Of a DNA stretch of 64,000 bases, positions 7,190 through 58,799 are shown one piece after another. Made by a program: the position numbers and the translations under genes. Under the pieces are notes generated by a model. The model worked only from the letters and a program-made list of their open reading frames with translations, ran no database searches and was not told where the DNA came from. Source of the stretch: Raillietiella orientalis (Eukaryota); contig JAYWIR010000015.1 in the NCBI GenBank assembly GCA_036172245.1, forward strand, positions 3,410,001 to 3,474,000. The letters are read 5' to 3'. Position 1 is the first letter of the stretch. The number at the start of each line of letters is the position of its first letter.

Positions 7190-8970
7190 GTGCTGCCTCA
7201 CGAAGTCTCCCCACTGCAAGTAGGTTCTCTGAGTTTTCGAGACTTCAGAGAGAAGGCGAAGGCTCGACCCTTCTCTTTCAAAGTGCCGACCGGACAGACG
7301 TGCGATTCTTCCTCCGCAGTCTGGACTTCCCCAGTAGAGCCACGCTTACGGAGGATGCCCCATCATCCAAGGCTCTCGAAAGAAGAGAATCCACTGGGGA
7401 GCAATCGGGAATCTCCATTTCCAAACAGGAGAGGCTTTTCACTTATCCTAGAATCTCCCGAACTCAAGGGGGGGAGCACCTCCCTTCAGAAACGCACAGG
7501 GTACCCCCTAGGGGCTTTCCGATGCCGGAAGCGAGCAAGCTTCTTCCCGACCTTGCTGGTAGCTGCGGTCGCTTGGGGATGGCAGCACAGCCAGAGTCCG
7601 AGATGCTTGCAAAAGAGAGGAGGAACCAGGATGAGCTCAAGGAAGGTGAAGCGGAGGCCGATCACGAGTTTTCGGACGTGGGGACGAAACTTCACCTCCG
7701 AGAAGCAGGGAAAGAACAAGGAGGCGGGAATTCGTAGCCTCAGCTCCTGCAGGGTCACCACCTCCCCCGTCTTGCCGTCGTCTGCACGGTGAGCGAAGTA
7801 ACGAAGGAGTATCTGAAAACGAGGAGGTCCGGAAGGGCCTGGGGACGCTCCCCTCCAGAGCTTCAATGGAGTCCAAGGACTAGCGTGCAAACAAGAGCAC
7901 GCAGACTCTTCCGCTTCCGGGACCAGAGTCCCATCCCTGTTTCTGTTGGCCGAAGGGAAGTGCTGCGTATACTAGGCGTTTCTGTTGATGCTATTTCTTC
8001 AATAACCTCCTTAACTGCAGAGCAACTCGGAAATCATATGCTTCGAATCTCAGAGAAAGGTCCGGTCTCTGATCTGAACCTCAGGAGTATCTGGTTCCGA
8101 CCAGGGTGGGCGCATGCACGGAGTGCTAATCGAGACTGCTGGCCGAAAGAAGCCGCTTGCGGCCACTAGGGATGGGTCCATTCGTCTGCGTTGCTGACGA
8201 TGGAATGAATGTGACGGCCTCTGATCTTGGGTCCAGGGCAGGGACGAGAGATCAGGAGAAGGCAGGGACTTCCGGATAAGCCCTCTCCTTCCTGCCTTCG
8301 TGGTTTCTGGAAAGAGGGGACGCAGATGGCGGGGCGTTGCAGTGATCGAGTCTTCCACTCATGTGACCAGCTCATGTGACCACTCCTCGACCACTCTCGA
8401 GCCACCGGAGCTTTTCCAGTGGCTCGAGAGCCACTTCCTGCAACACGCGGATCCAAGGAAGAAACACATGCTGCCGACTGGAAAACGGACAAACGGCCTG
8501 GACATCCCGGGGAAAAAAATTCTTTCTCTTGCTATCTGCAGCTGAAGCGCCTGTCCGGGAGGGAGACGGAAGACACAGCACCATTTTCAGGCAAGCTGCA
8601 TTTCTCTCTCGATTTCCGAGGGCTGCCACTGCACGCTCTATGGTCTCCCCGGCAGCTGGGAAGAAGGGATCATCCAAGTGATATTTCGACACGGCCCCCT
8701 GCGCAATTTGAGCTCGCATTCCGGATTCCACCGACCTTCCCTCACTCATTTCAAGTATCCTGGACTCCCAGTTCTGTTGCTCTTGCCCAGGGCAACAGCG
8801 CACACTTTCGTCTGATCGTCTCGTGGGCGTTCACCACCGTGACGAAGCTTCCCAGGCAACGCCCCGGTTGCACAAGAGCCACCGGGTGTTGTAGTACCGA
8901 CTTCGTGGTGACAGGAGGCAACCACGGATGCGTCTTTTTTCTCCTTCTTCTTATTCTCTACTAGCAAAAA
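7190..8970 (+). mobile_element. Decayed L1/Tx1-like ORF2 with internal deletion
   Basis: RRPITSF (WRPI), VLRILGV, PGWAH, a degenerate CCHC near 8540-8600 and a T-rich tail region. Confidence 0.55.
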
Positions 8971-30649: not shown

Positions 30650-32640
30650 GACTAAAAAGGTAAGGAAGGGAGAAGGGTCACTGCGTACATTTACTTTGCT
30701 GCATTACAGAGGCGGTCGTACGCAGAGGGCTGTTTGAAATATCAAAAATATGCTGCTGCTACTTTGGGATGCTACCTTGTTGTTCTTGCTAATGCTGTAG
30801 GAGTCGAAAGTTTTCCGTTTTCATCGCCTATGCAGAATAGAATCTCATCAACAACACGACGTCCAACTTCCTTGAGCAATGTAGCAGAAGTAATGAGCTC
30901 TGGTGGTATATCCTGAGTACACTCTGTAATGGCGGTACAACCTGCTGGAATAGAACTGTTTTCTGTGCGCTGAATAATGTCACAATCAACTGAAGAGTGT
31001 CTGCACTTGGCAAATAGCTAGTTTGCTCTGTAAAAGCTTTTACATCTTTCATAGCGTGGAGATCTAGGGCCATGAGCCAAAACTTTTTCGACCCTATGGC
31101 TACTTTCCCAGTTAGAGTCTCCACTCACAATCCTTCGAAGACTCCCTACAACCCGACTTCCCAGATGGAGTCATTTCATCGCCCTTCGCATATAGGCACT
31201 GGCAATTACAAATTGCTTTCCAGGACGTCGGTCACTCTCTTCCTTCACCCTCGCGGCGGCTAGCACATGGCGGAAAATCGCCAAAGCAGCAACCAGTACA
31301 CCTATAGACGTGCACATTACTCTAAAGAGGTCCTGTAGAACAGTAGCCGTAATTGGAGTTCCTTCACGATGTGCTACCATCCCTGACCTAGTCTTTTGCA
31401 TTAAAGCAGCACGTGCGGAAGTGTTTCCTCTGTCCTAAAGTGGGGCATTCCTTGAGAACTCTCCCCGCTTAGGTGTGGGAGCCCAGCTCCTCGTTTCGGA
31501 GGAGTGCCCAGTAAACCAGGAAGAAATCATTTTGCTGGCACCGGAGAAAAAACACGGAGGCGTCGACCAGAAAGCATGGTATCTCACAGCTCTCCCAGGA
31601 AATCTCCAGAGATTCCATCCATCTTTTGGAACGACCTGGAGCTAGAACTTTTCAAGCAGCCTAGTTCTCCAGGAGAGAGGTTTACTACTGGCGAATGACC
31701 TTGCTGACTCCGGAGATACGACAGATCACCTCCCACGCTCCAGAAGCATCCTCTTCCTCCTGAACCATCCCATCGATGAAACAGTAAATGCATGGAGTCC
31801 CGAATGGTTACATGCTGAAATCTGGATCCAGTATTCCTGCAAGAGGAAGTTTCCTCAGGCGGCAGGTGGCGTTACTGTTCGAAGAACTGGACATCTCACC
31901 CGCATCCAGGTTTCCAATAATTCCTGCCTTTAAGCATCCCTGCTGAGTGGGAGACAGGATAGCCAGTGGTGTTCCTCCACTAGCAGCTCACTCGGGAGGA
32001 GTGGATGAACCTAACTGCGTCCTCGTCCGAGGTTGCGTGAGAGGACGGATTCCTTAGCAGTTTTCTGCATTCTTATAAAAGACCAGTAGCGACCTCATAG
32101 AGAGATCACTGTGGTTGGCCTAGGAGGATAGGAATCCTTTTGGGTTCTTATCTGTTTCTCTGTCTTCGTTCCAACTTTTTTTTTCTTTTCGGGTTATCCT
32201 TTTTCGGTTTGCTAAGTACTGAAGAACCGTTCGCCCCTGAGGGAGCTCACAAATCTCTTTAGCACTGCTCTTCCACTCCATCCGGGGGTTCGTGTCACTC
32301 TTCAAGTTATAGAGGGTAACCTCCGAGGGACCACCTTATGAACCCACGAAGGCTTTCCTCTTCCATTATTTCTTCTCCTTAGGGAAGTAAGAAAAGATCG
32401 CCTTTTGGAATTTCTTCTCCGAACGGAACCCGCACGGGAATCGCTCCTGGTTTTTTCCTTCTCTGAGGAGAATCCCGAAAGGACGCTTCCCAATTTCTCT
32501 GGAGGGTCGAATGAAGCAGCACACTTCTTGACACTCTGGAGAGGCATCCTCAATCAATCAGCTCACAGTATTCGATGACGGGTTTCCCCCGAAGGGAGTG
32601 GGGATACGTCTCCATTTTTACAACCGGAGGTGAACTCTGA
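30650..32640 (-). mobile_element. Decayed L1/Tx1-like ORF2
   Basis: RRNSKRRSFLTSLRRR linker; a post-RT segment at 30830-31120; many stops. Confidence 0.45.
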
Positions 32641-35919: not shown

Positions 35920-35977
35920 CTATGGTTATTTGGACTTCTCATCGGATCCACTCTCCAAGAAAGGATGCTTACGTTAC

Positions 35978-36164: not shown

Positions 36165-36249
36165 CTGAAACAACATACATGATGATATTAGAATCCTTCA
36201 AGCCGAATCTATTTTATTTTTGTATCTTATAAAGTAATGCAACCTCAAC

Positions 36250-39171: not shown

Positions 39172-39243
39172 CTGTGTGGATTGCGAGGTCACCGAATGCA
39201 GCGTGGAAGGCACGCAAAGAAGAAAAAGGAACAGAGCTCCCAT
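39172..39243 (-). CDS. NEU1: Sialidase-1 exon 1 (signal peptide)
   Basis: ATG at 39243 gives MGALFLFLLCVPSTLHSVTSQSTQ (hydrophobic, signal-peptide-like). It ends at a CAG|GTGAGT donor in phase 0, compatible with exon 2. Confidence 0.75.
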
Positions 39244-39699
39244 CTTTGTTTCAGCACCTTGCAAATATCCAAGAACTTGCGCCTTTCGGTATCCAGGACT
39301 CGTCTTCCTTCAAGTTTCACTGATGACTGATGGAAACAAATGAGGGACTTTGATGTTTCATTTCAGCTCGACATGCACATCGAAAAGTGGTTCCCGTAGG
39401 AAAAAGAACATGGGCGAACAAAGGTGCACTTATTTGACTCACGTTGCGGAGTCAAATAAGAGAGTACTGCGGTTCGTGAAATCTCAGATTCTGTTTTCTA
39501 ACAAATGAGGGACCTTGAAAAAGGGTTGCCTGCAAGTCCCACCCGTCTCCTGGCTTTTTTCCAAATGCGTGCACAGTTCATGATCGCCCATGTCTCCTGA
39601 TAAACTGCATCTCCGTGGAACGGATGAGATGTCTCTCGCCTTCTCGCCCTCTCTATATCAGTTTACAAGATGATCAGCATCCTTATAAGTGACGTCATC

Positions 39700-42600
39700 A
39701 CTTATAACCATGCTGCTGATTGGGAGAGAGTTTTCTGACAGTCATTAGAAAGCTCGTGTTTCCCTTTCGATGAGGACCCGTTTGCTTCCTGATGAGACGG
39801 GAAAGGAACCTTCTGGAGCGTTCTTCCGGTTCAACATGGAAGATGGCTTTTGTGCAGCAGTATTCTGCGAAGAAAAATGCTGAATAGCTCTTTGTAACCC
39901 GGCTCATTGTCAACAGCACACGCAATTCTTCTTCTGTTTAACTCCATCCACCCGGAGGAAAGGTGGATGTACAAGAACAAGCGAAAAATAAACAAAAACT
40001 AGCATGACTGATCTGAGGAATGGAGGTCTCATCGGTTTGCTCTCGATCCAGCCCTCTCACTTCCCATTTTTGCCACTGTGAGAGTGAATCTTTTCTGCAT
40101 AGTTGGAGCGAGACTACTTTCTGGAGCGATGGATCGTGATGCCACGGGCCAGAAGTGTACCTTCGGTATTTCCTGAAGTGCCGCCAGAAAGAAGAGCTAC
40201 CACGATACTGTGAACATAGCACAAGAAATAAAGACCTAGAGAGTTCCACAGGGTGTCGTCTAAACATGAGAGCTCTGCAACTTTCCTATTGCGATAACGG
40301 CAGAGCATTCCAGCAAGAGGCAAAAGGTCTTTTCCATTCTACCTCACCTCATACAGCTCAGGAAGATGTCCTCGCTGGTCTATGGGTAACGGCTGCTCAT
40401 TACAAAAGAATCTTCAGTGAAAGAAAGTATGGTGAAGTCAAAGGAGTAGCATGTACCCCTGTCCAAACACAATTAGGGTCGCAAATTCGTTTCGATAAAG
40501 CTCCGAAAGATGTTACTACCAGATCTTACTACCCAATCCAGTCCTTGGATTCGTGGCAAGATGGCATCTACTCTATCTGAACAATCGTGCATCCGTTGGA
40601 AGTTTCGCTGCACCAGCCCACCGGTTAGCTACTGTTGTTGTTGGCCCAGATAATAAGCTCACCTCACACCAATCTACTTCTTGGAGTTTCCAACTCCCAT
40701 AGTAAACCCTTTGATTTCAATTCTCTCAGATCGAAATAACGAGTCTGTACAAAATTTGTGGCATCAATATGCTCGTTGGTGTTTCAGTAAGCCTTGCCAC
40801 TGGAGCATGGTTCTCTGCAGTCAAATTTAATTGTGAAAAATAAAGATTGATACATTACATAAGCATTCTTTCAAGAGAACTGAAGAGCAGGCAATGATTT
40901 TGATGATTATCACCAAGTGCGATTTCGTATACTGCACTTCGAGATTAGCTGGTACTTGCAGAACATACCCAACGGACTGCACGGGATGCTGATCATGTTA
41001 ACTGTGTCATATGTCCCGCTTACAGGAGTGACAAGAACATTTGCACTCTTCTGTTTACATACAAAGTGTTCTTACTGGAAGGTACCCGCACTTCGTCTTG
41101 ATGCATTTCCGCAAATACTATGACATGATTCAGATGAATCCTCCGAATGGAGAGACGAATTCTGTTTGCACCACATGGCATTTCACGTTTTGCACAGAAA
41201 CATAGAGACTTGTGTACACACCTCGAAGAATGCAGTTTTACTTTCAAATAAAAAGTACGGTCAGAACATAAAAGTATGCAGCTTCGTCGGTGTCAAGATC
41301 AGTCGTCACAACTTGAAAGCTCAGTCAGCACAAATACCATTGGATTAAGAAATTGGAAAGATGCCCCGAGAGCAACTCCAAAGAACTCTCGTAATATGTA
41401 CTTCAACTTCTTGTACGATACATACGAAAGACAAAGCTGCGACTAATAGAGAGCAGATTTGCAGACTTATTTCCTTGGGTCCATCATTAAGAGAGCGAGA
41501 CCCTTCCCAGGCAACTAACAAGGTGACACTCTTTCAGACTGATAATCGTAAGTCGCGTCTATGTCTCCATGGCTTCTTGCATTCGCGTACTATAGTTAGT
41601 GGCCTGAAGGAGATCCAGGATGCCTCTCTAGCAAAGATATCGTGGGGCGCATCTGGGAAGCTTCATTCTGCAATAGTTACGCGGTAGTAGGAACATCAGT
41701 CCCTTGCAGCTCGATGGACTAGTGTGACCTCATGTCTGAGGAGGAAGGTCGCTGAATGACACTGATGCTTGTTTCAGCATTGTTCCATGAAGACCAGTGC
41801 TTCGAAATCACAGCTGCAACTTTGTTAGCTTCGAAGTTTCGAAGTTCTTAGTGATGCGAATGTTCTCTTCTACAGAATTCTCATGGAACTGGCATCGCAA
41901 GCAATACTGAAATTCCTTCATGATGAACAAGAGCATTATGCGTCGATCTTGAAGGGGAATAGAGGGCAGAGCTTCGCGTTTCTCGTTCTCATTTACATTT
42001 GCACTGAGCAAAACTACAACAGTGTCCATGGTCCAATCATATCCCACACCCTACACTTTATGAAGGATAAACCAGTCATACGAGGTGTCCCGGTGCTGAT
42101 GTGATTCGGTGACGTGAGCCGACTCCTAGAGGAATGTTTGCCACTAAGGAAAAAGTGTCAGTGAAAGGAATGGATAAGACCACAGAAGATGGAACAGCTT
42201 AGACAGCGCTTAATCTTGATGCAAGAAAACATGCCTATTCACTTGAGGAGCTGAAGATGGATATGCAGTGAAAAACCAGACATGGTCCTGACGATAAGAG
42301 GGAAACACCCAAGTGACGATTTTCTTGAAAAAACGAGTATTATGAGATTGTAGCAGTAGCTGCAATAAGTAAACTGCACAACGGAAAGAGCTGAAAATTT
42401 TTGGATCCAATGATTCTTTTTTTTTTTTTGGCAGCTGGAACTTCACTTGAATCTGCTTGAAAGCATGACATGTCCAAAGACTTAGCTCTATAAAACTTTT
42501 AAAATCCTGAGGCCAATCTCAAGCTTACATAAGAAAGGAAAAAGCAACAGTGAGAAAACAACTAAAGCAACAAAACGAAGGCTCACATACACCAAAAGCA

Positions 42601-43200
42601 TTCGTTCAAGGCATAAATTGTTCAGAACGCTTTCTTGAGAACTGTGTCTGTGGTTTCTGATTCTCAAGGACTCCCACAGACAAAAGATGTTTCTTCCTCT
42701 GTCCTCATTCTCACCTGCACTTGATTCCCTGACGTTTTTGACACGATATTCTCAGTAGTGACTGCATAGCTACAAGACACATCCTCCCTTAACATCTGCT
42801 GACAAACGGAGCAGTCAAAGCTTCCTCGTTCCTGACAAATCACAAGCTCACTGGAACACAGAGCTGCTGTCATCATGAAAGAGTCAAAATCTGTGTGCCG
42901 AATTCCTGAGGTCTCCCTTAAAGCAGTTTGAAGACCTCTAGGCTTCATATGCATGCCGAGCGCTCCTAAATGGCAATGGAGCATTTGATAGGATAGGATA
43001 GACGCTGTGTAGCGGACTTGAGTTTGGGAATCCCAGGTACGAAGTGCCACAATTTTCGAACAAAGATACCACAAAGATATCCGGCAATTTTGAGCATTTA
43101 AGTATGTGTTGGTTTGGAAGATCGGAAAAAAACCTTGCGAGCACTTGATCGTTCGATTTGAGGGATCCCTAATCAAAAAATAAGGATGCATAAGATGGTG
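39700..43200 (+). mobile_element. Decayed BEL/Pao LTR retrotransposon pol
   Basis: DVLAG...TPVQTQLG (DUF1758-like protease tail), AFFQ, VPLTGVT, LHGF...SLAKIS (Pao RNase H), SHTRCPGA and an IHL site (integrase), in the expected order. No LTRs found. Confidence 0.6.
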
Positions 43201-43999
43201 TCCATGCATGAGACCCAGTATTTGCAAAATGGTAAAAAGGAAATGATGCGAAATGAAAGATCATACAAAAGTTGAGGTATAGACTTGTGAAAGTATCTGC
43301 GCTAGCTGTGTACCTCTACCTTGAGAAAACCTCAAAAAAGACTCTGTCAAATACATGCAAGTCAAATGAATCCTAAATCTCGATGAATCTGCCTTCATTC
43401 CTTCTGTCATTAATCTGAGGATTTCAAGCAGAGAGCATGAGCATCTGGAGAGAGATTTTGACCTCTCGTGCACTTATTCAGTTGGCTGCTTCATCCACTG
43501 ACTCATTCACTGCAGTCTCTTTGACATTCGTATGCCAAAAGAACGGTTAAGCAAACCACAGCAGTATTGTCGGGCAAGAAGATTACTCTTGTGACAGTAA
43601 TCAAGCAGGTTTTGCATCACACTCAAACCGAGCTGCTATGATTTTCTAATTCATTAGCTATTCGATTTGGTTTTTATTTTTGTTTCCCCCTTGCAAAGCA
43701 TCCAACTGGAGATTTTCCATTTACCAATCTAATTTACAGATTAGGCCTCACAGCATCTCCTGATAGCTTGTACGGTGTGATTTCTATAAAAATTCTGTTC
43801 TATGAGTAGAGGTTTGTTGCTTTCCTCCCCATCTTGAAAATCTTATTTGAATTCTTTTCTACCTACTGTCAAGGAGCCCACACGAAAATCGACCTGCGTC
43901 CTCTTGTCTTCTGGAATTTCTAATTCTCTTTTAGTTTCTCCAGAGGGGTAGATCTTCCATCATTCAAATCAACAATTTGTTTGCTTGGAGCCACAAATG

Positions 44000-46900
44000 G
44001 CTTCCGCAAAATCTAAAGATATCTTTTTCCATAGTAAATGGCACTTTCATATCTGATCACTCTTCATGCAAATTCACGACTCCTGTTTATCTAGTGTCAC
44101 AAACAAAGCCTGATGCAAGCTCGCCGAATCAAATGCTGCGATGCAAGAATTGAAGCTGGATTATCAGATCTGCCGATTCTAATGGAGACTACCATTGCAC
44201 TGCGTATGATGAATTCAGCAGAAAACTTCCTGTTTGCATCTGCTCCTCAGATGGGACATGTCAAAAGCAGTCATAAGTGGCGTTTTTATCTTTGTGTTAG
44301 CTGCTCGTTGAAAATTGATGGATACTTCCAATGCAGCTAGTTTCAAATTCATTGCCTAGTTCGAAAACCGGGATGAAAGTAGGACATCCTTGAAAAAGTA
44401 GCAAAAATGCAAAATAAGCCCTCCTGATTATTTAGGATGAGACTTGCAGAAATTACAGGTTATTTTATTACAATGCTCTTTGCACGATTAGCTGGCACTC
44501 TTGTAAGCTTGCAGATAATTCACGATGCAATGGCGTCTGTTAATTGATTAGTTTCTGTTGCGTTACGGTTCAATTGGTGAGAAATTAATGGAGTTTTCTA
44601 CAAATTGTGGAGCACTAAAACAACAGAAGCCTACTCAAAAAAAATTGTGATAAATATTATGCACAAACCCCTTCTAAAAAACTTAAGAAGAAGGAGAAGT
44701 CCAGTGGGAACTCTGACGTCGTCCAACGAAATTATTGAAAACATGAGCGTACTGCATTTCCATTTATCCTGCAATACTGTCTTGGAATTATGTTATTATC
44801 AAATATGGGGAAATAAGGCATTTGAATACTTTAAAAATGGGTGCATAAGTTAATAATTAACATCCCTGTTACAAGAAAACATTTGAAAATAAGGTTATGT
44901 TTCATTGTACTATGAATCATTTCATTTCTCATGAAAAACTAAGAGATAATTGTCATTTATCCTTGGTGGCAGTTAATTAAATCCTGAAATAATTGAAGTG
45001 ATCTTTTCAAAAGTACTCTTTGTTTTCTCCTTAGACAAGATTACTGTTTCTTTTATGATACTAACAGTAATTCTGCCAATATAACAAGACTATGCAAATA
45101 TTTGAACTGAATATCGATATGTTATTGGCAATGTTTGCACGAGAGAATAATGCCAGCTATCTTTATTCGATGTTTCTCGATCACATACTTCCCGTTACGG
45201 AATATAGGCGCAGTTAAGAGAATAATGTAGGAGGTAGTGATTCTCATTCATGTGTTAAAAGAACCTTTGTTACCAACTGTTTCGAGAATTCTTGTAGACT
45301 GTATTCTCCAAATACCCTTGTGCTAAATATTTGATTGATTTAAGATGAGTCATTTCAATCATCGTTAATCGATTATTTAGATTCCTTAGTTTCAGCTGTT
45401 CTTATATCAGGAATTCTGTTTGCTTCATACAAATTCTAATTATTCTCATGTTAATGAATTATTTTGGCATATCAGATTTAATACAAGCATGTTTAGTACT
45501 GCCTATTGATGTTTTATGGGATCAATGTAGGGTTTCAGTATTTTTATGACAGCCTATGATAGGTATGTGCTTCTTGCAGCAACCTGAAATTTTATTTCAA
45601 TTCTACACATTTTTATCCAAGTATTGTTCATTTTTGTAACTGCGGTTTGCGTTTTCAGTTTTATTTATGGTTAGAACTTCTCTCTGTAAGAGTGAATTTG
45701 TTGATATTAGTGATGAAGAGTAATAGGATGACTTTGCATTTAAGCACACTATCGTTCTTACATGTTTCGGAGCCTTTGATGTGTATGATGAGCACTTAAC
45801 ATCCAAACTGAACATCAAAATGTGTGAATTCAAATTGTTGAAAATAGCAGCTGCTGCAAACCAATCTGCACCACCAAATAATGAGTATAATATTTCATAA
45901 AGGACTCCTGGGATAAATCAATGAAAAATGTTTCATCCATTTATTTTTATTAAACAGTTGCTGTTGGGCTTTTGGGTAGCGTTTTTTGTTCGCCTTTGTG
46001 ATAGCATTGTATAGACATGAATTTTTGTTGTTCAAGGGTTGTTAGGTCATTTAGTGTCAGACAATTTTGAGTGTTCTGGAGTGTCTTTGAATTTAGAAAG
46101 ACTCACCAGTTATATGGTCAATGATTACATTTACAGATAGATGAAGCCTTTTGCTGTTTTTTTTCTTGGTAGCTGTCTTTGTTGTTATGGCTTAAGCTTA
46201 TCAAATCCAGCTATTTTATGTTGCATTACTGAGATTGAGTTGATATGGTACATTAGGCTGAGCATCTTAGAATGTATATTTGCTGGTTCCTTACATATGA
46301 ACTTCAACAATTATGTTTAAATAGAAAGTATCCTTATGTATGATAATATGCTGTAAGCCACAAAAATGTCTTTAAATTGTTAAGCCTACTGAAATTCATT
46401 TGTGCTGATGAGTTGCTCTATCACTGATTGGTAAGCAAATGTAAATAAGCTATTAGAATGTAATTTAATTTTCAGTTAACTACACAGAACTGACTGAATC
46501 CTTTAGTAGTAGCACAATAGGGATCTAGGAATTGTGGTTAGGTTGCCTTTACTGGAATTGCTAAACTGTGCAAAATCATAAATACATTCATTTGCCACAG
46601 TTAAAAGTTCATAAGTATTACTGCTACTCTTTAGTGCCGTATGTTTACATTTCACTGAAGGAAATTAAATGAATGTAGCAAATATATGATGGGCAGTTTA
46701 TCTCAAACGAAAATTATGGGAATGCAAATGGCACAAGAATGGTTTGTATTTTGATTCTACTGACATTGTTTGGTCCTTTTACTGTTCAGATTGGTGGACT
46801 TCTCAAGACATTATAAATTGCATAAAGGAAATCTAGAGTTAAATTTCTTAGAAGTATGAGTTTTATGAAAAAAAAGTTTAATAAAAAGAATTCTGTGCAA

Positions 46901-48620
46901 GTTGTTAGAACTGTTGATTTAGTTGTAGCATATATTAATGGGGTCTTTGTTCTTTGAGTTTATGCCTTATTGTGTTTTAAGATTTACATTAATTGTTTTT
47001 GTGTATTTTCTTTCTTTTTTTTTAGAAAGCCATGATTTCAGGAAATGCCAGTATAGAATGTACAGATGCTTTTGTTTATTAAGTGTTGAAGTCCAGTATG
47101 AAACATTATTTATTGAGATCCTTGTTCGCAAATCTTTTCTAAATAGTGTCGATATAACATTAATTGGCTTAACAAATTAACAAATTAATCATCATTCACA
47201 GTAGTTGGGTTAGAGCTCAATTGCTAATTATAACAAAGATGTCATTGACATGGATTAAAATGCAGAGAAAGAAATAATGTTTCAGTTCCATCCTATTGTT
47301 CCATATTGCATTACAAATTATTTGATTGCAGTGTTTTGGTGAAAATATACCTTTGCAAGTGTATGCTCAGATATTTACTTGCTAAGTGTTGCAGACAAAA
47401 ACTCCAGAATTTTTTGTGCTTGCTTAGATTGTATTTTCGATTGTTTGTTTTGGGGGGGGGGGAGGGGGTTGGTATTTCTTTTTGAGGCATGTTACATGAA
47501 AGTTTATACGTGATGTGTATATATCTTACAATTTTTTCTTATACTTTTCCGCATGTTATAGTACCAACTAAGCTATTTCAGATGTGCCCATCATGGCTTC
47601 AGTTTTGGAAAAAATGCCTTATCTATTAATGTGTTTCCTAGTTAGCTTTCAAAAAGTTCATTTTAAGTTGACCTAAGATGACATGAATGCAAGATCGTTA
47701 AGCATAAGGCCATTAAGGATCATTAAGCATTGTTGTTCCTCCATTTGAGAGCAATGTTTGCATATTTTCATTCTCAGATTTTGGATTAATGGTTTCATCA
47801 AGGCGATGTGTTTTTTTTTTTCCATTGAGAAAGTGTTTTGCTAATTTGTTTATGAAATTATTTGTCTGCCAATCTTGATACCATCAGCTGAATTTGTTAA
47901 AACTGGTACTCTTTAATAGTTTCAGTTCCTCGTTTCACACTCCACTCATTCATTACTTTAGGGCATAAGGGTTACAGTTTCGAAGATTCCTCATGAAACA
48001 AGAAAGAAGATTCGAAACATCTACATGATTTAGAGTGCATCAATTTCTTGGTTTCCTGTGTTACGTCTACCCTTCTCACTAAGCCTTTTTAGTCCACGTT
48101 CATTTTCTTGTGATTGGAAAAATGTAACATATAGGTGAGATTGGAATATGATTGGCCTCGTGGTAGCCATTCTTTAAAAAATTGGTTTCCTGGAGAAGTG
48201 CCATCTTTTGTCTCGTCTGTTTCGGAAAGTGCGAGGTAGGTGTATGCATGCAAGAAGTGTTCAATGCGTTATTATGCACTGCAATATGAGCTGGTTTTGA
48301 TCATGCAGTACCATAACGAAAAGCCAGGGTTGCTTCTGTAGCTCTTCATGTGGAGCAAATGTAGCATTGATAGAAAAATGTGAGACTTATTGTGCAGAGT
48401 TCAGGTGCAAGAAGGACCTAAGTGGCAGTGGAAAGCGACTAAAAATTCATTCATTGGCTATCCCATAGAACATGAATGTGTTGGTCTGTTGTTGTTTAGG
48501 CACTCACAATAACACTGCTTTTGTGAACTTTGTATTTTTGCGAGAAAATTGTTGCGCCATGTTCTTGCCATTTTCTTTTCTATTCAAATAAATGAAGCTC
48601 GTGTTTACAATCAATATAAT
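44000..48620 (+). other. AT-rich, TE-free block; probable long 3' UTR of a plus-strand gene
   Basis: Sharp drop in GC, CpG-poor, U/UG-rich with many TGTA motifs, AATAAA at 48587-48592 near where the composition changes. Confidence 0.45.
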
Positions 48621-49278
48621 TTCCGTGCACGAACACGAGTGGTATGAATATCTATCGACACAGCAGTAGGTAGAGAAAAATACTGAAAGGTACCCTTCCA
48701 GTAAGACGATTTAGGCCTTGTGTCCGCATTTTGTTCCAAGCATCGAGTTGTTTTTTGCCTTTATGTCATCTCTCCTGTCGTTATCCTTGCACTTCCCAAA
48801 GGCGTGATTTCTCATGAAGCCCATGAATAACTGAATGAATAACTCATTTAGAAGAGGGAAAGCATGTAATAAGCAGTCCATTCATCTGTTTGGATCTGCG
48901 TATGCAGGTAGTAATTCAGTTCAAAACTCTTGAGCTCATCTTAATTTGAATTTTCAAAATTTTAATCGTATATATATCATGAAATAGTAAGTGTCTTGAG
49001 TCTCCCTCTCCACACACAGTTGCCCATACCCAAGTAATCAATTCATAACTCAGTAAACTTGCCAGTGGAGAAATTCATCCAGGTTTGGAGAGGGTCTGTA
49101 GCTGCCAAATACCAACCCATGAAAGATAGTAAATGCAATTTCTAGTCTCCCTTTTGCTTGACTGTTTGCATTTTTTCCACCGAAAAAGGTGAAAATGAAA
49201 TGTGTGGGAACATGCTGGAAGTTCCTTATTGATTGGACTGGTTTATTCCTGTTTGATAAGCAACCAACTCTGCACAAC

Positions 49279-49419
49279 TTTACCAAAATTTATTGGATCG
49301 ACTGTGAGGCGTTCTTTTATAGCCTTTTGAATTCTTGGCCTTATTGTCTTTGGAAGATTTGGTAAATCCCTTTTAGTAACGTTCTTTAGAGACTTAATTT
49401 TATAACGTTCTGGTCCCAC
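49279..49419 (-). pseudogene. relE: 3'-truncated Wolbachia RelE/ParE-family toxin
   Basis: GTG start gives MGPERYKIKSLKNVTKRDLPNLPKTIRPRIQKAIKERLTVDPINFGK, then an abrupt switch to host LINE sequence. The RLRVGDYR catalytic half is missing. Confidence 0.85.
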
Positions 49420-49544
49420 TTAATATCTTCAAAATTAACTATTTCTGCACCTTCAACATCACCCTCATCAGAAATTTTGGAGACTAAAAAATCCTCCATT
49501 TCAAGCTCAGTTGCTTGTCTGAGTAGTTTTTCTGCTAGTTCTTG
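49408..49544 (-). pseudogene. 5'-truncated Wolbachia antitoxin gene of a RelE-type TA pair
   Basis: QELAEKLLRQATELEMEDFLVSKISDEGDVEGAEIVNFEDIKWD, an acidic C-terminus of the kind found in the Wolbachia ORF upstream of relE. It overlaps the GTG start of the toxin. Confidence 0.8.
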
Positions 49545-49735
49545 AGCTGCAAGTGAGAGTCCTAGCCCTATAGTTTCCATTACTTGGGATCTATAATGTG
49601 CTTTTTTTGCTAAAACATTTTGCTGCTTTTGTACTACAGATCCTAGTTAACTATATTTCCCTTTTAGTACTTCAATAGATACCCAAGTTTAGTTTGATCC
49701 CTCACTAAGGATTTCATATTTTTCTACTTTTCTTT
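49545..49735 (-). pseudogene. Fragment of Wolbachia prophage WO tail tape-measure protein (nuclear Wolbachia transfer)
   Basis: With frameshift(s) and one stop it translates to KKSRK.MKSLVRDQTKLG/SIEVLKGKYS*LGSVVQKQQNVLAKKAHYRSQVMETIGLGLSLAA, recognised from memory as N-terminal WO tape-measure sequence. AT-rich. Confidence 0.8.
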
Positions 49736-50099
49736 GATAAAAGATTTGAATTTCCTTCAAAATTAATTGACCTTAATCAAGAGTACATAAAAGATTGATC
49801 TGATGTGAAACCAGATTCGATGTATCTATTGACAAGTATTTGAGCGCTTTAAAAGTAGGGAAGACAGTCTAAGTGTGCACCCAATGAAATACGTAAGTAT
49901 TGAAGTATTGAAATACGGAAGTACAGTAAGAAGGATAACATACCTAAAGAACCTGGTGATATAGTGAACTCTGATAATACATCTTCACCCTTCCCTATAC
50001 AAGAAAGTATACAGCGAATTCGTATACCAGGACCCTAAATTCAAAGTTGCCTTATATTAAACTCAATAAACTCACGTAAGGCGGAAGCAGTCATGCACG

Positions 50100-50560
50100 G
50101 AATGTAAAAGAGTTCGCCAATTGTGATGAAAATCTTTTCTCATGCTGCATCAACTGATCCTCGACATTCATACGTGACTTAGCAATTGTATGTCCAGTCT
50201 AGAGATACATCAAGCTTTTCTTTTGCCAAGAAGTTTTGAACATGTATCTACTAAGTGAGGAATCAATGTTTCATGGTAAGAATTAGCTTTTTGTTTTGAT
50301 CACGCTATGAGGGAAGAAACCGTATCACTGGAGGTTGTTTCCATTGCTCCGTCATCCGATGTCTTCAGATGACTGCTCTGCTGACTTCATGGATCTATTC
50401 CAGAAACTTTCTAGAAATTTGAGATTGTAATAACTAGACAAGCAATAGAATGCACTTGTAGATATTCATCGTTGTACCTTCCGATAGAAGTGTACACAGA
50501 TGGAGTTGGTTTTTTTCCCTGCTTAAGAAAATTGTCATTCACTGAATCTGATGATTTTTT
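50100..50560 (-). mobile_element. hAT (Buster/Charlie, ZBED5-like) N-terminal remnant
   Basis: GRYNDEYLQ...CLVI...NRSMKS...HLKT (RKY..EYL / CVIC / N.SMK...HL.T). Confidence 0.45.
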
Positions 50561-51079
50561 CTTTCCAACAGCGGGTGAGCTCAAATTATTAATCGGGAGC
50601 ACTTTTTCAAAGTCTCGTGTGTTACCTGAGTCTTGGTGCTCCTTACTCACTTTCAAACCATGCCGTTTGGGTGCATGTTGCAGCAACACGATCTTCTTAC
50701 AGTCGTTTTGCGTTTGAACGCACGGACGCAATGCGGAGAGTCAACCGGAGACGAAGTACTGAACCTCTCCATATATATCGTCCGTGTTCATTTTAAATCC
50801 TGGTGGAGCTCTTCCATACGTATTCCAATATAATTTCATTTTGCTATCGAAAGGATTGATATATAGTAAGTGCACACAAGTGTTGTGGCCGGGGCTATTC
50901 CCAATACGTTAAGACAAACAAAAAACAAGGACTGGAAGAGAGAGGGTAACTAAGACATCTTAGATTGTGGCCCGTTCCGGCAATAGGAACGTGTCACCGC
51001 TAAATGGTGCGGAAACCATTTCTGCTTTCTGGAAAAGTGTGAAGTGTTTTTCATGCACTCTTCAAGAAAGGGAACAAGG

Positions 51080-51770
51080 ACTATTTTTCTCGAGTCGGTG
51101 ACCCGGAGTAGCAGCGCTCCGAATGTCGTTGACTCGAAGAGTTCGTTGAACCACTTTTAGGTGCATTTTCCTGGGTTTTTGGAATTTTTGTAGGTGACCA
51201 CCGTAATTAGCCAGGATGGGCAAAAAGTCACGGCCCATAAGGAACCCTCCCGTCACTGCATTGGTCGCAAGAAAGGAGCCAGGATAGCTCCAGCAAGAAA
51301 CATGAGAAAGTCCCTCTTCCATCTGCATTCGTGGAGCTGGAGTCCCCCGTTGGCAGCGGTGGCCAACGCGGAGACCCCAGCAAGCGATACGGGCGTGCAT
51401 ATTATAGCCAAAGGGAGTACCCTCCCCTTGGCTATAAGTCCTCTTTCGGCTACAGGGTAGATCGCCCACCCTTAGAGATTGCAGTACGCGAGTTGCATAC
51501 CGAATTTATGGTCGGTGCAAACGAGGAAGGCTTGGATTCCCTGATCACGTTAGGCGGTAGTAACGCATGGGAAGTTGGGGAGTTCCTGCAAAAATGCAGA
51601 GCTTCGGAGTTGAACATCCGAGGGCGAAAGGTTCTTCCACGGAGGATTGCTCATTTGTCCTCCACCTGAAAGCATTGTGTCGCACAACCACACGCGACGT
51701 AATCGAAGCCGTACACGAATACATCACCGTTCAAGCCGTGGTGGGAGCCTCACCCTGTTAAAGGAATCAG
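51080..51770 (-). mobile_element. L1/Tx1-like RT C-terminal fragment
   Basis: VSALATAANGGLQLHE (GGLGL motif); degenerate YADD region near 51710. Confidence 0.5.
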
Positions 51771-51783
51771 CTTCTGTGTGCAG

Positions 51784-52460
51784 TTTTTCACCCGGTCACA
51801 CCGGAACATTTATGTAGGCCAGCTGGGGACACAGTTCCCAAAACAAAAACAAAAAAAAAAAGTTCAAGGGGAGCGTTTACAAGTCGGTTCACAGGATAGT
51901 CCAGAGTGGCAGGGTGGTGACAAGGGTCTATGCTGTTGGACGTTCCTGGCTCCATATAAAGTGGGGTGGCTCCCTCTCGCGTCTTGGCGGAGAACCCGCA
52001 AAAACTTCCCCAGACTGGAAGTCTGCGGTAAAATTGTAAACCTCTGGTATATGAGTTGAAAATATGCGGCGATGCGGTAAGGAGTCCGTTCAGGAGGCAC
52101 ACAGATGGAGTTGAGCATGCATCGACCACACTGAGGCTGGGACGCCGGGCAATGTAAGGAGCAGGAGAAAGAATTCTGATTGTCGGACCAGGTAAAGAGC
52201 CTGGCTATGCACTTCGGCTATGCAGCAGTGTCGTAGAACTTGTAGAAAGAAATTCTGGGGAAAACAAGACAGGTAGATATCAAGTACAGCCCCTGGTATT
52301 TTCAACGATGAACCAGAGGGCTAAACTGTGAAACGGCGATCTAATTCCCTGTTACGTGTTCCCGTGGCCTGCCGAATGGACAAGAATACCTGTATGGGAG
52401 TAGAACAGCTGCGGCGCAAAGTACCATGAGAGGAACTCAAACCTAGGGTGGGGACTCAAG
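51784..52460 (-). mobile_element. 3' end of a Tx1/L1-like element
   Basis: Zinc-finger remnant YSCPFG; terminal CATAAA-TGTT-CCGG-TGTGA-CCGGGTGAAAAA. Confidence 0.5.
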
Positions 52461-53299
52461 CTTTTGTGTAGCCTGAGAGAATTCCTAGCTTTGTTTTCGC
52501 TATTGAGAATGCTCACAAATGTAACCATAGTGTGCAGACTTGGAACAGCGGCAGCTGCGGTCTGGGTTTACGGAAAGGAGATAGGTCACACGCGCTGTTT
52601 TGTCTTGCGCTGCCATTTTGCTGTGAATGTAGCTGCTCCTTCTTCCTTTGCTCACGTCCGAACTGATGGATTTTGAGGCGCACGCAGTGCTCTTCTGCTT
52701 CCGTTGCAACCGTCGTGTTTCCTTATTGTTTCAGATTTCCAAGGCAACGAATGACGTTTGGGAGCGACGGACAGCAAAGACCTCTGAGGAGCTGCAACGT
52801 AGACTGTTGGCGGACAATGGGACACCTTAGATCCTGCACTGGCCAAGTCTGTTCCATGGTGTCCGAATCGGACCAAGAATTCACACAGCTCTCCCAAGAG
52901 TTGCACTTGAGGGCCACATAGTGCAACACGTGTGTGCCCTGAGCAGCACGCTTGCGTTTTGATGAGTAATAGTTCACAAACGCATTCTCTTCCACGGAAA
53001 CCTTGAATAGACTCATGCTATTCAGGCAGTAGGGAGGCAGAATCGAAGGTCATGATGGCAGATAGGAAAAACCATATGAGGCCCTAGGAGAGATGTCCCA
53101 GCAACAGGAAAAAATAAAACCCTTCTGGTGATCGCCATTCATTCCACTGAGGACACAACCACGGAAAAAGGGGGAGAATAAAGTCTCAAGAGACATACAG
53201 AGGGGGGAAGGTATGAACCGACCTCAAGGTAAGACTGATGCCGGATTAAGGATCCAAATAGGGAAAGGAACGGAAAAAGATGTGACAGCTTATCACAAC

Positions 53300-54650
53300 C
53301 GTTTTTCTAGCTTATCACTCGGCCATTGTCCTGAGACTCGGTACACTTTCGCGTGCCAGTTTGTGCCACATTGTAACTTAGCACGATGAGCACTCCATGT
53401 AAACAAGGTGAGGGGCAGCAGTTGGCAGGTAAGTAACGGGGTCGTTTGTGTGAAGACGCGAAGCTCTACAATAGTAAACGGGAAGCCGGAGTCCTGCATA
53501 AGAGGGGTCCTCGAAGGCACTCACATACCTCCGGCAGTCAACGGATGGTTGCTGGCATTCTCACTCGCCCCGATGTCTTTGCCGGCTATTCAATTAGATC
53601 CGATGACCACATCCGGGTGCGTTGTTCTTCAGACGAACTGTGACTTAAGAACGCCTTCGACTACGAACGCCAAAGGTGCAAACTCGGTAACTTCTCTGCC
53701 GATATCTCTCTGCATTGGGGAGCGTATAGTCTATGAGGGGAAGTAGGGAAGAGGCTGCGCAAGGGAAAACGGTGAGCCACTGTATGGGCCTCCCCTATTT
53801 CGCTTCTCGGTGCTCAGAAAGCTTTCAGCAGCCTCCTTAGATCACGTTGCAGCGTTTCCTTATCAACGCGAACAGGTAAACCTGGTGCATTGGTTCACTG
53901 AACTCGGATTGCGCTTCAAGATTAATGTCAAAAAATCGAAACTTTTGTCCATTTGTCCACCATTTGTCCTCAGCATCCTGACGAAGCAGTTTCCGAGTGA
54001 CGGACTGCTCCATCCTATACCGGAGAATCCACATTGGAGACACCTCGATGGCTAAAGTCCAGTGATGGGAGATCTGGAGAAGCAGAAAACAAGTACAGCC
54101 AAATCGACCTCAGCTTCGAACAGGACAACTTGTGGAGCGGCGTGCTGCTTCCCAAAATCCTACACGGAGTGGGCTTTTTATACCCAATGAGGCAGGGACT
54201 AGGACGTCTGCCAAGGGTCGAACGCAATCAGGATGTGGAGCAACTATCGATTTCGGGTAAAGCTCACACACACCTGTCCTCCGAGGGACGGAGATGGCAT
54301 CGGAACGAAGTCTATTGAGTAGACGATCCAGCTCGCCAACTGGGATGGAAAACACGAAGAGCTGAGATGCATGGTCTTAGGTTTCTTTGAAGGCTTACAG
54401 AAAGTCGCTGCACAGATCCGGCGTCATGATGACACCTCAGCTGACGATAAAGGTCAGTGGACGGACCTCGACCCTATATGGCCAAGTAAAAGAAATCTGG
54501 ACAAAAATAAAATCTAAACATTAACTGGCTCCGAGTTTTACCTGGATGCAGAGAGCTCTGAGATATGAAAAATAAGCCTTGGTGATTCCTAGAATCATCT
54601 TAGTCTCGTAAGTAGCGAAGCAGTGGATCCACCAGAGGTTGCAACTAAAG
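53300..54650 (-). mobile_element. Decayed L1/Tx1-like RT
   Basis: AI*GRGPS/PLTFIV (G.RQG.PLSPL.F), ELDRLLNRL, PCRILG. Confidence 0.55.
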
Positions 54651-54723
54651 CTACGACACTAGCAACAGTTTGCAACGAGCAGAAATTGTCGCGAGATGAG
54701 ACTGTTCCAGTTAATGAAGCAGA

Positions 54724-55480
54724 TTTTCACCCGGTTACCCCGGTTGTTTATTTAATAAAAATAAACAAAGTTAGGGCCATATTTCCGGAAATAAAAACAA
54801 AAAAAAGGGTTCAGCGACATGCAGACCGTCTTCTTGGGCAGTCCGAAGCAGAAGGGAACAAAAATAAATAAATAAAGGGTGGATGGGGGACAAAGGTCTT
54901 TGGCTTGAGACGCTTCTTGCTCAGTAATGGCACAGGAGAGATCTCGGACTTTTCTTCCAGGTGAGGTCACCTCGAAGCCGTCCTCATAAAAGTGGTTGCC
55001 ATGAGGGTAGCCTCCTTTCCCTGTGCCCCAGACTCCAGCACGTGGTGGGCTCTGGTAATGGAGCGAATGCAACATGCTGTCTCAATCACGGCGCTTGTCG
55101 CAACTCCGCCTTGCGCGAAGAATCGCCGAAGTCCCTGGCAGTCTTCAGTGTGCAGAAGCTCTGAAGTCAGACTCCGCAAAACTTCCTGGAGGGCAACGCA
55201 GCTCAATAAGAGATGAAGGAAGGAATCAATCTCTTCACACCATAAACAGTGGGAGGACGTGGCTTTCCGCAAACCAAGTTGCTACGCTGGTTGTACTGGA
55301 AACCCCAGCATGAAAGCAGCAGCACACCGAGTTTCCACCTACGGAGTTGTTTATGCACGAAGGAAGTACTGCAAGTTCTTCATCGAAACAGCTCCAAATT
55401 GATTTTGAGTTTAGCTGTTGACGGTCCAATTGTGTTGACATCTGGACCGTTGGACCACCAATTTCCATGGTGAATGATGT
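54724..55480 (-). mobile_element. 5'-truncated Tx1/L1-like element (zf-RVT plus 3' UTR)
   Basis: CLWCEEIDSFLHLLLSC CCHC finger, clearly homologous to the 62-kb copy (AVIETACCIRSITRAH vs AVIATVCCTRAIDKAH); terminal AATAAA stem-loop. Confidence 0.8.
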
Positions 55481-56574
55481 CTCACCTCTGCTACTTTCTG
55501 CCCGGGTGACTCTTTCTCCTCTTGATGAGGAGTTCATATGAAGATAAAGATTCGGAGAGTCTTGATATCCATTGTCTGATGTTCGAACGGCTCCTAGCAC
55601 TAAATTTACTCAAATTATTTGATCTAAATATGATCTTTTTTTGAAGTTAATTTGCATTTGGCGAATATTATCATCTGGATTTTGCCATTTCATGTCATTC
55701 GTTTCATTAGATGGATTAGACTGAGGCAGAGGATTAACATTATTTGTCTGGTTCATCATATCACGTCTTGTAGGTACAGTGTTATTAATTAGTTGTCGTG
55801 TTGTGGTCGGCTTGGAGTATTTCCTCTCTACCCCCCTCTCCTGTCTCTGTGACCTAGTGTTTTGAGTAGACAGGGTGCTGAAGTTAATTGTTATATGACC
55901 ACTATGTAATATATGACATGACCGTTGTTACATGACATTGTTATATGGCAACAGCTTCTATATTTGTCAAAGAAGTAACGCAGTTATTACTTCTGATCGA
56001 AGTCAAGAGCAAATGTCGTTGTATCTATCTACTGAATCAGGACATGGGGCAATTTGATGACATTTTGTGCTGTCATGACTTCTACATTTGCATGAAGGGA
56101 CTAACTCGGGAAAGACATTTTTCCGTTTTCAGCATCAGAAGGGAACAGAAAATGCGACCATGTTCAATCCAATGTCTGTGTTTCTTTGGACTGCTCTCAG
56201 CTCTCTCACGAGTCAAAAAGGCACTCGGTTCTCGCAATCTTTCGGGGGCTGTCACTGATGAGAACTGGTTCTGCTCATCAAATATTCTCAGAATTCACCT
56301 TATTGCTCCTTCGGCACGATTGTGGATGTATCTGAATACGCACCATGATGACCATTCTTATTATTACTAATGGGTGATGGTTGCATGGATCCTTCCTTCG
56401 ACAATCGTGATGAAAGCAAAGCGAATGTTACCGGCTAATCCTTCATTCTCCCTCTGTTCATGGGATGCACATTCAACTTCCACGATGAGACTTTTGCTTC
56501 AAATTTCTGGTTTGCCGCCTTATCTTTCAAGCTGCTTTGCTCTACACATTTAGAATGCGGACTTCTAACTGAAA

Positions 56575-56614
56575 CTGTTCTACTGCATCATTAGCTGTTC
56601 TACTGCATCATTAG
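56575..56614. repeat. Exact 20-bp tandem duplication
   Basis: ctgttctactgcatcattag x2. Confidence 0.95.
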
Positions 56615-56649
56615 TCTGGTCTGATGTTCTCTCCACGTGGATACTGTCC

Positions 56650-58000
56650 AAGATTTTAGATACTGCAATTCCTTCCATAGAAGACGAAGGTGTTGATTGA
56701 TATTATTGGAATGAAGAATTCAGTAGATGTTGGCTGAGAATGCAACCACTGATACAATGCACTAACCCTAGTGATGCCGGTCATGTGAAAGGGTTTCACA
56801 CGTAAGAAAGGAGAGATGCAATCTATCAGGAAACCACTTCCTGACGGGAAGTGTCAAAAGTAGCTTGCGGCAGTGGAACCCGAATCAAAGGCATCGACCT
56901 GATAGGTTGACCAACAAGAGAGGCATGCGCTTTCACAAAGAGGATCCTGTAGTATCAATAAAGCATTGCTGAGAACATGAGAGAAATGCGTTCATTTTTA
57001 TCCTAAGAAAACATTATCGTTATACATACATACAACATCATTATATGGAAACTCATTCCAGTCTGAATTTATGTGCGTAATTTTGATGATGAAACTCCAC
57101 AGCCTGAAAGGAAATCATCAAGATGACTTCTGGAAGCATTAACTCATCTAAACTATCATGCGCAGTTCTGGAAAATGTTGTGCAGTCTCTATGATCTTTT
57201 GGCAACAGTTTGCCCACACAGCTTAGAAAGTAACCGTTCTTTAGAAAGAAACGCAGGTGACACCTCCTAACATTTCTTAGAACATCAGCAATTGTAGACC
57301 TTCCCATGCTTGCTTGCGAGCACCTGTGACAGTCGGTCAAGCAGAAATTCCGGAGCCGCACATATGTCTTGCCAACAACTTGCCTGGGGATATACACGAC
57401 TTGCCTTCTCAGACCTGCCTAAGTAGTCGGTAAGAAATATGATTGGGATTGGACTCGCAAAAGCCTACAAGCGACGAAAGAATCATAATCCAAGGCACCT
57501 GGTCGAGCTTGCTGTTCTTGGTGCCTCTTTGCTCATCTTCATCCTGGATGTCCCGGCCAATTTATTTGTAGCAAACCAATCAAATGCCACAAAATGTCGG
57601 ACTGCATCTGAGTTGGGTCGAAAGAGCTCGATCCTCACGCTGGGAATTTCTTGGAAGAGGGTGGAGCGTAGATTGGGGGACCAGCATTATGTCATTAGCT
57701 CTTCAACTCTTGAGAGTCTTGAGAACCTGTGCCTTGGAGGAAATGGCGATGTTGTTGTCGGTGAGTCCCAAGCGTTTTCCGCGATTGTTCTGAGGCTTCT
57801 TCTTCTGTATCCCTCAAGATGAAACCAAATCGAATGACACTTATTATAAGGACGGTGGCGAACACGGAATAGTCCCTGATGCAGACTACTTGACTATCCG
57901 TTCTCGTTGCCATCGTTTTTCTCAGGTTTTCATCGAGAAAGCAACTGGTGAAGCCTTTTCCAATGGAGGTGTCTGAAAGCATCTTTAGGAACGTTTCATG
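56650..58000 (-). mobile_element. Decayed LINE RT
   Basis: MGRSTIAD (GRST.D), ISYRLLRQV*E, LQDPL (PQGS-like). Confidence 0.45.
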
Positions 58001-58799
58001 CCTTTAAAGGTGCATTCCCGTTGACTCTGCATCCTTGCTCATTCGAATAACTCGTGACTATGGGGCCTCTATGATGCTGCAGCAAGCAAACTTCTAGAGG
58101 GTACTCTTCATGGAGGTGTGATCCTGCTGCTCGTAAAGCGGTATGCCACAGTGCACCACCGGTGCAAGATCCCAGTACACCAAAAGGAAGATTGAAGCGT
58201 CCGCGATGGAAACTCTCAAAGCCGAATACTCCTTAAAGAGTGTTAATAAGTCTTCTCAACCTCTATGCACCCTGGATGCCTGGCGCGCATCTCTGCTGAT
58301 ACCAGTCGCAACAGGCACTTGATCTCTGTATCCTCAAATCCTGACATGGTGCCTCCCATGCCGCACAAGTCTGTCTTCCTCTGCTCAGATTCAGGAAGGA
58401 TAGCACGGCATCGGCAGATATGAGGATGGACATGAGTTTGTGTCTCGTCCAGAAGTTGTCATCCCTGACTGGCGAATGCAACTCCTATTAGAGACGCTGG
58501 GTCATTGCAAGCAAATCCGCGCGTTCAATGCCATCGGCATTCCTGTTTTAAGAAGTTATTTTCCAGTAGCACTGCAATTATGAATAGGCGAATAGTCCAA
58601 CTCAGATTCACTATGAGCCGCCATTTGCGTGGGAGTGAAGAAAAAAGTGAAGTAAGAGGAAACGGTTGGTTTTCATCCGTTTCTTTTTCTTTTTTTTTTT
58701 TTTTGAAATTCTAGATTATTCCGACTGTTTTCCTTTTAATAGTGGATGACTTCACATTCGTGACGTCCACAGTAAGATTTTATGCGTGGGGGGCCTCGG

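Follow-up and report, generated by a model that had tools for sequence, protein, structure and literature searches.

Gene content of the Wolbachia-derived insert

The window, that is, the whole 64-kb stretch of DNA that was analysed, carries on its minus strand a 457-base segment of Wolbachia DNA at 49279-49735. The blast ends fall at exactly 49279 and 49735, and they agree to the base with the limits that had been proposed in an earlier reading of the letters and open frames (hereafter the sequence-only reading). The similarity to Wolbachia is far in excess of chance, with 46 of the 60 Wolbachia-genus genomes searched by blastn matching one or both pieces of the insert, and with best hits that are Wolbachia, at 91-92% nucleotide identity and E values down to 2.4e-109. 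Loci outside Wolbachia reach at most 68% amino-acid identity. The Wolbachia / prophage WO origin that had been claimed for this segment is therefore upheld.

Three frames are read from the minus strand of the insert. The first ends in ...SIEVLKGKYS and is closed by TAA. The second is an 86-codon frame running from 49646 to 49386, which reads LGSVVQKQQ...GLSLAAQELAEKLL...EDIKWDQNVIKLSL (ORF 49386..49646, 86 aa) and which unites part of the tape-measure piece with the antitoxin tail in one open frame across the joint between them. The third is a GTG-initiated frame running from 49419 to 49279, which reads VGPERYKIKSLKNVTKRDLPNLPKTIRPRIQKAIKERLTVDPINFGK (within the ORF 49243..49419, 58 aa) and overlaps the 86-codon frame. 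The peptides quoted in the sequence-only reading are thus all present at the locus and on the strand to which they had been assigned. The features derived from Wolbachia, in this insert and in two further patches of the window, are collected in Table 1.

Table 1. Coordinates of the Wolbachia-derived features found in the 64-kb window
Feature	Positions	Strand	Remarks
Wmk-family (WO male-killing family) helix-turn-helix gene, 3'-end fragment	7963..8036	+	55-74 bases
rseP 3'-end fragment (Wolbachia chromosomal)	30688..30794	+	72-74% identity, 5 of 5 genomes, one site each
Internal fragment of a WO virion structural gene (WOSOC_0036 homologue)	30795..31125	-	indels and frame breaks
RelE/StbE-family toxin, first 47 codons, GTG start	49279..49419	-	parent protein 91 aa
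RelB-like antitoxin (CopG-type according to one source name), last 45 codons	49413..49547	-	parent protein about 71-78 aa
Joint, 4-base overlap GCTC (minus strand)	49544..49547	-	bases common to both source alignments; microhomology
Phage WO tail tape-measure gene, internal fragment	49544..49735	-	approximately nt 362-553 of a 2292-nt gene

Among phage records, the tape-measure piece matches solely Wolbachia phage WO by blastn (3 of 3 records). The best of these matches, MW788656.1, shows 87% nucleotide identity over 49546-49735 (E 1e-56) and falls within the CDS WOSOC_0019, a 2292-nt gene annotated as 'tail length tape-measure protein T'. The best of the 60 Wolbachia genomes for this piece, G014, is 91% identical over 194 columns (49544-49735; E 1.5e-70), and the full-length WO relative of the piece is placed in phrog_28 (tape measure) with an E value of 2.3e-124. 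Some 64 of 763 codons are left, with two frameshifts and a stop among them, and the fragment itself can no longer be counted as a member of the tape-measure family.

The second piece, 49279-49547, combines the end of the antitoxin gene with the beginning of the toxin gene. It aligns without gaps over 269 bases to genome G053 at 92% identity (E 2.4e-109), and at 90% to each of two copies in G001, the Wolbachia of Cantharis cryptica. The phage collection offers no counterpart to it at the DNA level, 18 records giving chance-level hits alone (E at least 0.08). In a collection of 5.8 billion proteins, 17 of the 19 scored candidates for the antitoxin frame have E values of at most 0.001; identity reaches 85%, across 53% of the query, in a protein of the Wolbachia of Cantharis cryptica (P0014). 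All 13 scored candidates for the RelE frame pass the same threshold, the highest identity being 77% across 91% of the query; they range from 77 to 91 aa in length, and nine of them have 91 aa. The RelE and antitoxin matches that are named at source are all from Wolbachia except one 'MAG: Rickettsiales bacterium', and 'group A' is the source label of several named proteins among those that score best, a label to be read with the mobility of WO and toxin-antitoxin genes between strains in mind. The annotated counterparts in wMel WO lie further away: the antitoxin tail has 38-48% amino-acid identity to RelB/StbD of wMel WO, and the 58-aa RelE frame has 46-50% identity to RelE/StbE in four wMel WO records and to an unannotated wVitA record.

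Searches of Pfam, NCBIfam and PHROGs with the insert fragments themselves yield no credible family assignment. Because the fragments are too short for such scans, their identity rests on homologues, among which the full-length RelE relatives P0001, L018 and L004 pass the model TIGR02385 RelE_StbE with 31.2-32.5 bits (cut-off 27.9). Each of the three genes that the sequence-only reading had named, the WO tail tape measure, the antitoxin and RelE, is borne out by the sequence searches.

Both members of the toxin-antitoxin pair are incomplete. The RelE fragment corresponds to residues 1-47 of 91 and its C-terminal half is absent. Members of the RelE/StbE family (TIGR02385; PF05016) possess the whole domain, some 85-95 aa in length, and the piece thus derives from a member of the family without being a working member. 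Alignment to full-length proteins shows that the antitoxin fragment lacks approximately the first third of its gene. As its stop codon has also been lost, what is left does not amount to a type II RelB-RelE module. In the Wolbachia of Cantharis cryptica, the closest RelB/RelE type belongs to an array (L004, 644050-656208) that comprises five or more pairs of small antitoxin/toxin-like genes. Three toxin ORFs of the array match RelE_StbE, and genes for Rpn-family nucleases and truncated DnaB-like genes stand between the pairs. This array is partly duplicated nearby in inverted orientation (L005).

A joint between unlinked fragments

When the minus strand of 49150-49850 is used as the query, the tape-measure alignment ends at query position 307 and the RelB/RelE alignment begins at 304, the two sharing the four bases listed in Table 1. 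In none of the 60 Wolbachia genomes does a single blastn alignment run across the joint between the tape-measure and RelB pieces. In G053, G001 and G014, either the best-matching sources of the two pieces are separated by hundreds of kb or the genome lacks the close RelB/RelE type. A RelB/RelE pair does occur at a distance of about 1 kb or less from the tape-measure gene in wMel WO and in G014, but it is situated upstream, in the order opposite to that of the window, and it is a distant paralogue of the pair in the insert, with 46-50% amino-acid identity. Since no alignment crosses the joint and the order of the pieces is not native, the 457-base insert can be described, from these comparisons, as a composite of two unlinked fragments rather than as one prophage stretch. 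The 4-base overlap is no more than suggestive of end joining, as an overlap of this length would be expected by chance in about one joint in 256.

Decay of the insert

The tape-measure piece bears two 1-base deletions, one between 49720/49719 and the other between 49681/49680, as well as a nonsense codon at 49647-49649 (AAA>TAA). The RelB/RelE piece is without indels. Its antitoxin stop codon at 49410-49412 has been lost (TAG>CAG) through a T>C change at 49412, which at the same time alters codon 3 of RelE. With two deletions, a nonsense codon, a lost stop and truncation of all three genes, the insert displays the decay by which a nuclear Wolbachia transfer (nuwt) is recognized. The sequence-only reading had likewise taken a stop and one or more frameshifts as signs of decay. 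This is correct for the changes just described, but not for the change of frame between antitoxin and RelE, which is a native overlap: the two genes overlap by 10 bases in G053, and the same arrangement is kept in the window.

The extent of the change that is particular to the window is comparable in the two pieces. When the tape-measure piece is set against 13 Wolbachia/WO homologues, the window stands alone in 11 of 194 columns (5.7%, a count that includes both deletions and the nonsense change), and in the RelB/RelE piece 14 of 269 sites are private when set against nine Wolbachia homologues (5.2%). This similarity fits a single event for both pieces. The 14 private changes of the RelB/RelE piece comprise ten non-synonymous ones, including the loss of the stop, and four synonymous ones, compared with an expectation of 3.5:1 for random mutation. 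They fit neutral drift, the N:S test having low power with 14 substitutions. Part of the 5-6% private change may already have arisen in the bacterium, the donor strain being outside the set of sampled genomes. The GC content of the insert (0.34-0.35) is still Wolbachia-like, the flanks being at 0.38-0.39. With neither gene complete and the toxin deprived of its C-terminal half, the insert encodes nothing functional.

Surroundings of the insert and further Wolbachia patches

The window contains no Ns; its GC content is 46% and its CpG o/e 0.77. In the assembly, the insert is bordered by 49.3 kb and 14.3 kb that show no Wolbachia similarity besides two other small patches, such that a short, decayed piece of Wolbachia lies inside DNA of eukaryote type. 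This setting supports the nuclear Wolbachia transfer that the sequence-only reading had proposed.

The flanks were examined at both the DNA and the protein level. The whole window was compared in four pieces with five Wolbachia genomes by blastn, and the segments 1-20000 and 31200-49200 were compared by blastn with all 60 genomes, the best 5 candidates being considered for each genome. In addition, all 2402 stop-to-stop peptides of the window of at least 18 aa were searched by tblastn against one complete Wolbachia genome of 1,582,319 bases. The tblastn hits with a per-query E of at most 1e-3 all fall in three small patches, the best E in a reversed-window control being 0.002. Apart from the insert, no Wolbachia similarity was found in 40001-60000 (blastn, five genomes), nor in 31200-49200 (60 genomes, best 5 candidates per genome).

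The patch at 30688-31125 consists of two fragments that abut in convergent orientation. The source ORF of the rseP fragment passes the model TIGR00054 RseP, and the differences between this fragment and the Wolbachia base run AT>GC in 18 cases and GC>AT in two. The neighbouring fragment, 30795-31125, shows 66-72% nucleotide identity to Wolbachia genomes and to 10 WO records, with a tblastn E of 1.6e-20, and its homologue is placed in phrog_1394, virion structural protein, with an E of 7.8e-46. The convergent layout is not native, and this patch, too, is a composite. Its GC content is 0.43-0.44, compared with 0.27-0.41 in the Wolbachia homologues, and its flanks are at 0.49-0.51. It has moved considerably further from Wolbachia than the main insert has (about 70% versus about 91% identity) and is shifted toward the GC of the host, by which measures it is the older of the two.

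The third patch, 7963-8036, shows 89% identity to G014 and G006 along 55 bases and 76% to five other genomes along 74 bases, and it matches eight of the 60 Wolbachia genomes when the best 5 candidates per genome are considered. The ORF from which it derives reaches 414.5 bits with the Wmk-family model NF047948, for which the cut-off is 300. The patch has 38% GC and is located in a region of 54-56% GC.

Judged by their divergence, Wolbachia pieces of clearly different ages are present within 64 kb, which is hard to explain by contamination; patches of different ages fit repeated transfer into the host germline. Four of the five Wolbachia-derived pieces are linked to WO (tape measure, virion structural protein, RelB/RelE and Wmk-family), rseP alone being core-chromosomal, and in two of the three patches unlinked fragments are joined directly. 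It is conceivable, though we regard it as doubtful, that short WO DNA released by lysis or carried in particles may be a preferred substrate at breaks in the host germline, over the bulk of the bacterial chromosome. Five pieces that are not independent are too few a basis for such a preference, and a multi-copy prophage is also easier to detect. If true, phage WO would serve as a vehicle for the transfer of DNA from bacterium to animal.

Of the public runs, X1 alone matched the window, with 0.09 of the sampled words, and no RNA run did so. X1 consists of low-depth contigs, and 13 of its records fit 46000-53000, including three exact 151-base contigs on the flank at 50311-51195. Coverage is scattered and of low depth, and among the best 8 of 18 pieces none bridges 49279 or 49735. 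One X1 contig fits the RelB/RelE piece at approximately 49276-49490 and then continues for 255 bases past 49490 in unlike sequence. This contig could stem from live Wolbachia or from another copy in the sample.

Origin of the insert

The small size of the insert, its non-Wolbachia flanks and its inactivating, apparently neutral changes indicate a nuwt, as opposed to a live bacterium or a misjoined contig. We consider it probable, on balance, that 49279-49735 is a dead nuclear Wolbachia transfer in which two unlinked fragments were captured together, end-joined over four bases and then left to neutral drift. Two short fragments from unlinked places in the genome of a WO-carrying Wolbachia would have reached a chromosome break in the host germline. 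Both would have been captured there in one event, one of them an internal piece of the tape-measure gene and the other bearing the end of the RelB-like antitoxin gene and the start of relE, and end joining at the 4-base microhomology would have linked the two. The resulting insert, presumably nuclear and germline-borne, would subsequently have drifted neutrally and acquired its private change of about 5-6%.

Both pieces lie on the same strand with equal private divergence, and other Wolbachia patches are found 18 kb and 41 kb away in the window; these observations would also accord with the remnant of a once larger Wolbachia/WO insert, of at least tens of kb, that was collapsed by deletions and rearrangements in the host, in which case the 4-base overlap would be a deletion joint. 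Large nuwts that later fragment are among the cases described (PMC4299567, PMC4046930). Such a history is possible but rather unlikely. The order of tape measure followed by RelB/RelE is colinear with no WO or Wolbachia arrangement seen, and a simple deletion would consequently need an unobserved donor arrangement or a concatemer. The other patches, moreover, differ greatly in divergence (about 70% versus about 91% identity), which argues for separate events, and the AT-rich DNA around the insert retains no similarity to the Wolbachia genomes searched.

An error of assembly, in which reads from live Wolbachia in an infected animal ended up in a contig of the host, is very improbable, even though an X1 contig shows Wolbachia-like DNA in another context in that sample. 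The insert is only 457 bases long, and 14 kb separate it from the closer of the two window ends; it joins two truncated genes in a composite seen in no Wolbachia genome (n=60). Its coding sequence is interrupted by frameshifts and a nonsense codon, and its N:S ratio is close to random. The same window holds two more decayed patches, one of them shifted to host GC. An assembly chimera is thus unlikely for an insert that is small, composite and mutationally dead.

A host function of the chimeric 86-codon frame (49386-49646), or of a transcript from it, is scarcely credible, for although the joint keeps one frame open over 86 codons and the RelB/RelE piece is free of indels, the frame begins directly after the nonsense codon, the tape-measure part upstream of it is frameshifted twice, the antitoxin lacks its N-terminal third, the private changes are mostly non-synonymous, and a frame of 86 codons is unremarkable in a window with 123 frames of at least 95 aa.

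As to the donor of a dead nuclear transfer of this kind, the Wolbachia of clades C and D (filarial) are described as lacking WO (PMC4046930), which favours a WO-bearing, arthropod-type Wolbachia as the better guess. The sequence-only reading had deduced that the host is an arthropod or a filarial-type nematode. This list is plausible but not exhaustive, because Wolbachia genomic fossils, including pieces of WO, are also reported from Dictyocaulus viviparus, a non-filarial nematode (PMC4046930).

Relation to known transfers

The insert is an ordinary nuwt of the small decayed fossil type, and as such it belongs to a well-known phenomenon. Its architecture has a counterpart in complex numt/nupt insertions, in which several non-contiguous organelle fragments are end-joined with short microhomology. 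In these mosaics, as in the insert, unlinked donor fragments stand head to tail at one site with an overlap of a few bases; the donor of numts and nupts is an organelle, whereas that of the insert is an endosymbiont together with its prophage.

The RelBE modules of wMel WO (MN180250.1, MN180251.1) are homologous to the pieces in the window (38-50% amino-acid identity) and have the same overlapping gene arrangement. The RelB/RelE piece of the window belongs to a different lineage, closer to G053 (92% nucleotide identity), and it is truncated at both ends. Its type is represented in the Wolbachia of Cantharis cryptica within the toxin-antitoxin array with Rpn nuclease and DnaB-fragment genes mentioned above.

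Nuclear Wolbachia transfers are reported from approximately 20-33% of arthropod genome projects (PMC4299567, PMC3798261). The nuwts described in Dictyocaulus viviparus (PMC4046930) resemble the insert in being short fragments amid host DNA, with frameshifts and stops, with WO genes among them, and in having been judged neutral. The GC content given for that nematode is 34.5% (PMC4046930), compared with 46% in the window, and the host is a different one. Unlike the Dictyocaulus case as described there, the insert is closest to an arthropod-type, WO-carrying Wolbachia with 91-92% identity, and it consists of two pieces that meet at a defined joint of 4 bases. Transfer from Wolbachia into the host germline, as proposed here, is also described for Drosophila ananassae (PMC4299567), Brugia malayi (PMC3849323) and the f element of Armadillidium (PMC5541319). 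The nuwts reported in these three cases are large, often duplicated and sometimes transcribed or functional, whereas the insert has 457 bases and is truncated and dead.

The insert records the past or present occurrence of WO-bearing Wolbachia in the lineage of the host. When the patch at 30.7-31.1 kb, which is older and GC-shifted, is considered as well, more than one transfer over a long time is suggested. It also carries a warning for annotation, in that hits to RelE, antitoxin and tape-measure proteins in this assembly represent dead fragments, which are neither host genes nor proof of a live infection. The joint of two fragments with its 4-base overlap provides a small, well-resolved example of how nuwt inserts are assembled.

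Other features of the window

The AT-rich block at 44-50 kb was considered as a larger decayed Wolbachia insert and rejected, as it gives no blastn hit in five Wolbachia genomes (60 for 31200-49200, with 5 candidates scored per genome) and no protein-level hit above the control in one complete Wolbachia genome. Its part from 44000 to 48000 has a GC content of 0.31-0.36, a CpG o/e of 0.43, a GC skew of up to +0.22 and an AT skew of down to -0.16, and it does not appear to be Wolbachia-like at either the DNA or the protein level. At the flanks of the insert, a search for a target-site duplication found short repeats at chance level only, and neither tandem repeats at the flanks nor intra-window repeats touching the Wolbachia patches were found. 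The sole intra-window repeats detected by self-blast are short palindromes at 32650-32715, 26353-26396 and 17177-17222 (66, 44 and 46 bases, respectively; 87-95% self-complementary).

A tRNA search of the window found none, and the sole Rfam match is a 96-base fragment of eukaryotic LSU (28S) rRNA at 25215-25310 (RF02543, 79 bits, model positions 2666-2761), which is isolated and far from an rDNA context. A Pfam scan of the 123 open frames of at least 95 aa yields one match, a sub-threshold BNR_2 (sialidase-like) hit in a 96-codon frame on the minus strand at 35651-35938 (30.1 bits, cut-off 31.4), to which the 35 short ORFs neighbouring it add nothing. This frame may represent an exon of the host or a further piece of foreign DNA. 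A search of 1315 candidates for longer proteins matching the plus-strand frame at 61932-62447 gave no match. This frame of 172 codons has a CxxC...H...C-like motif and a zf-RVT lead in 25% of one protein cluster, and it seems to resemble the tail of a non-LTR retrotransposon ORF.
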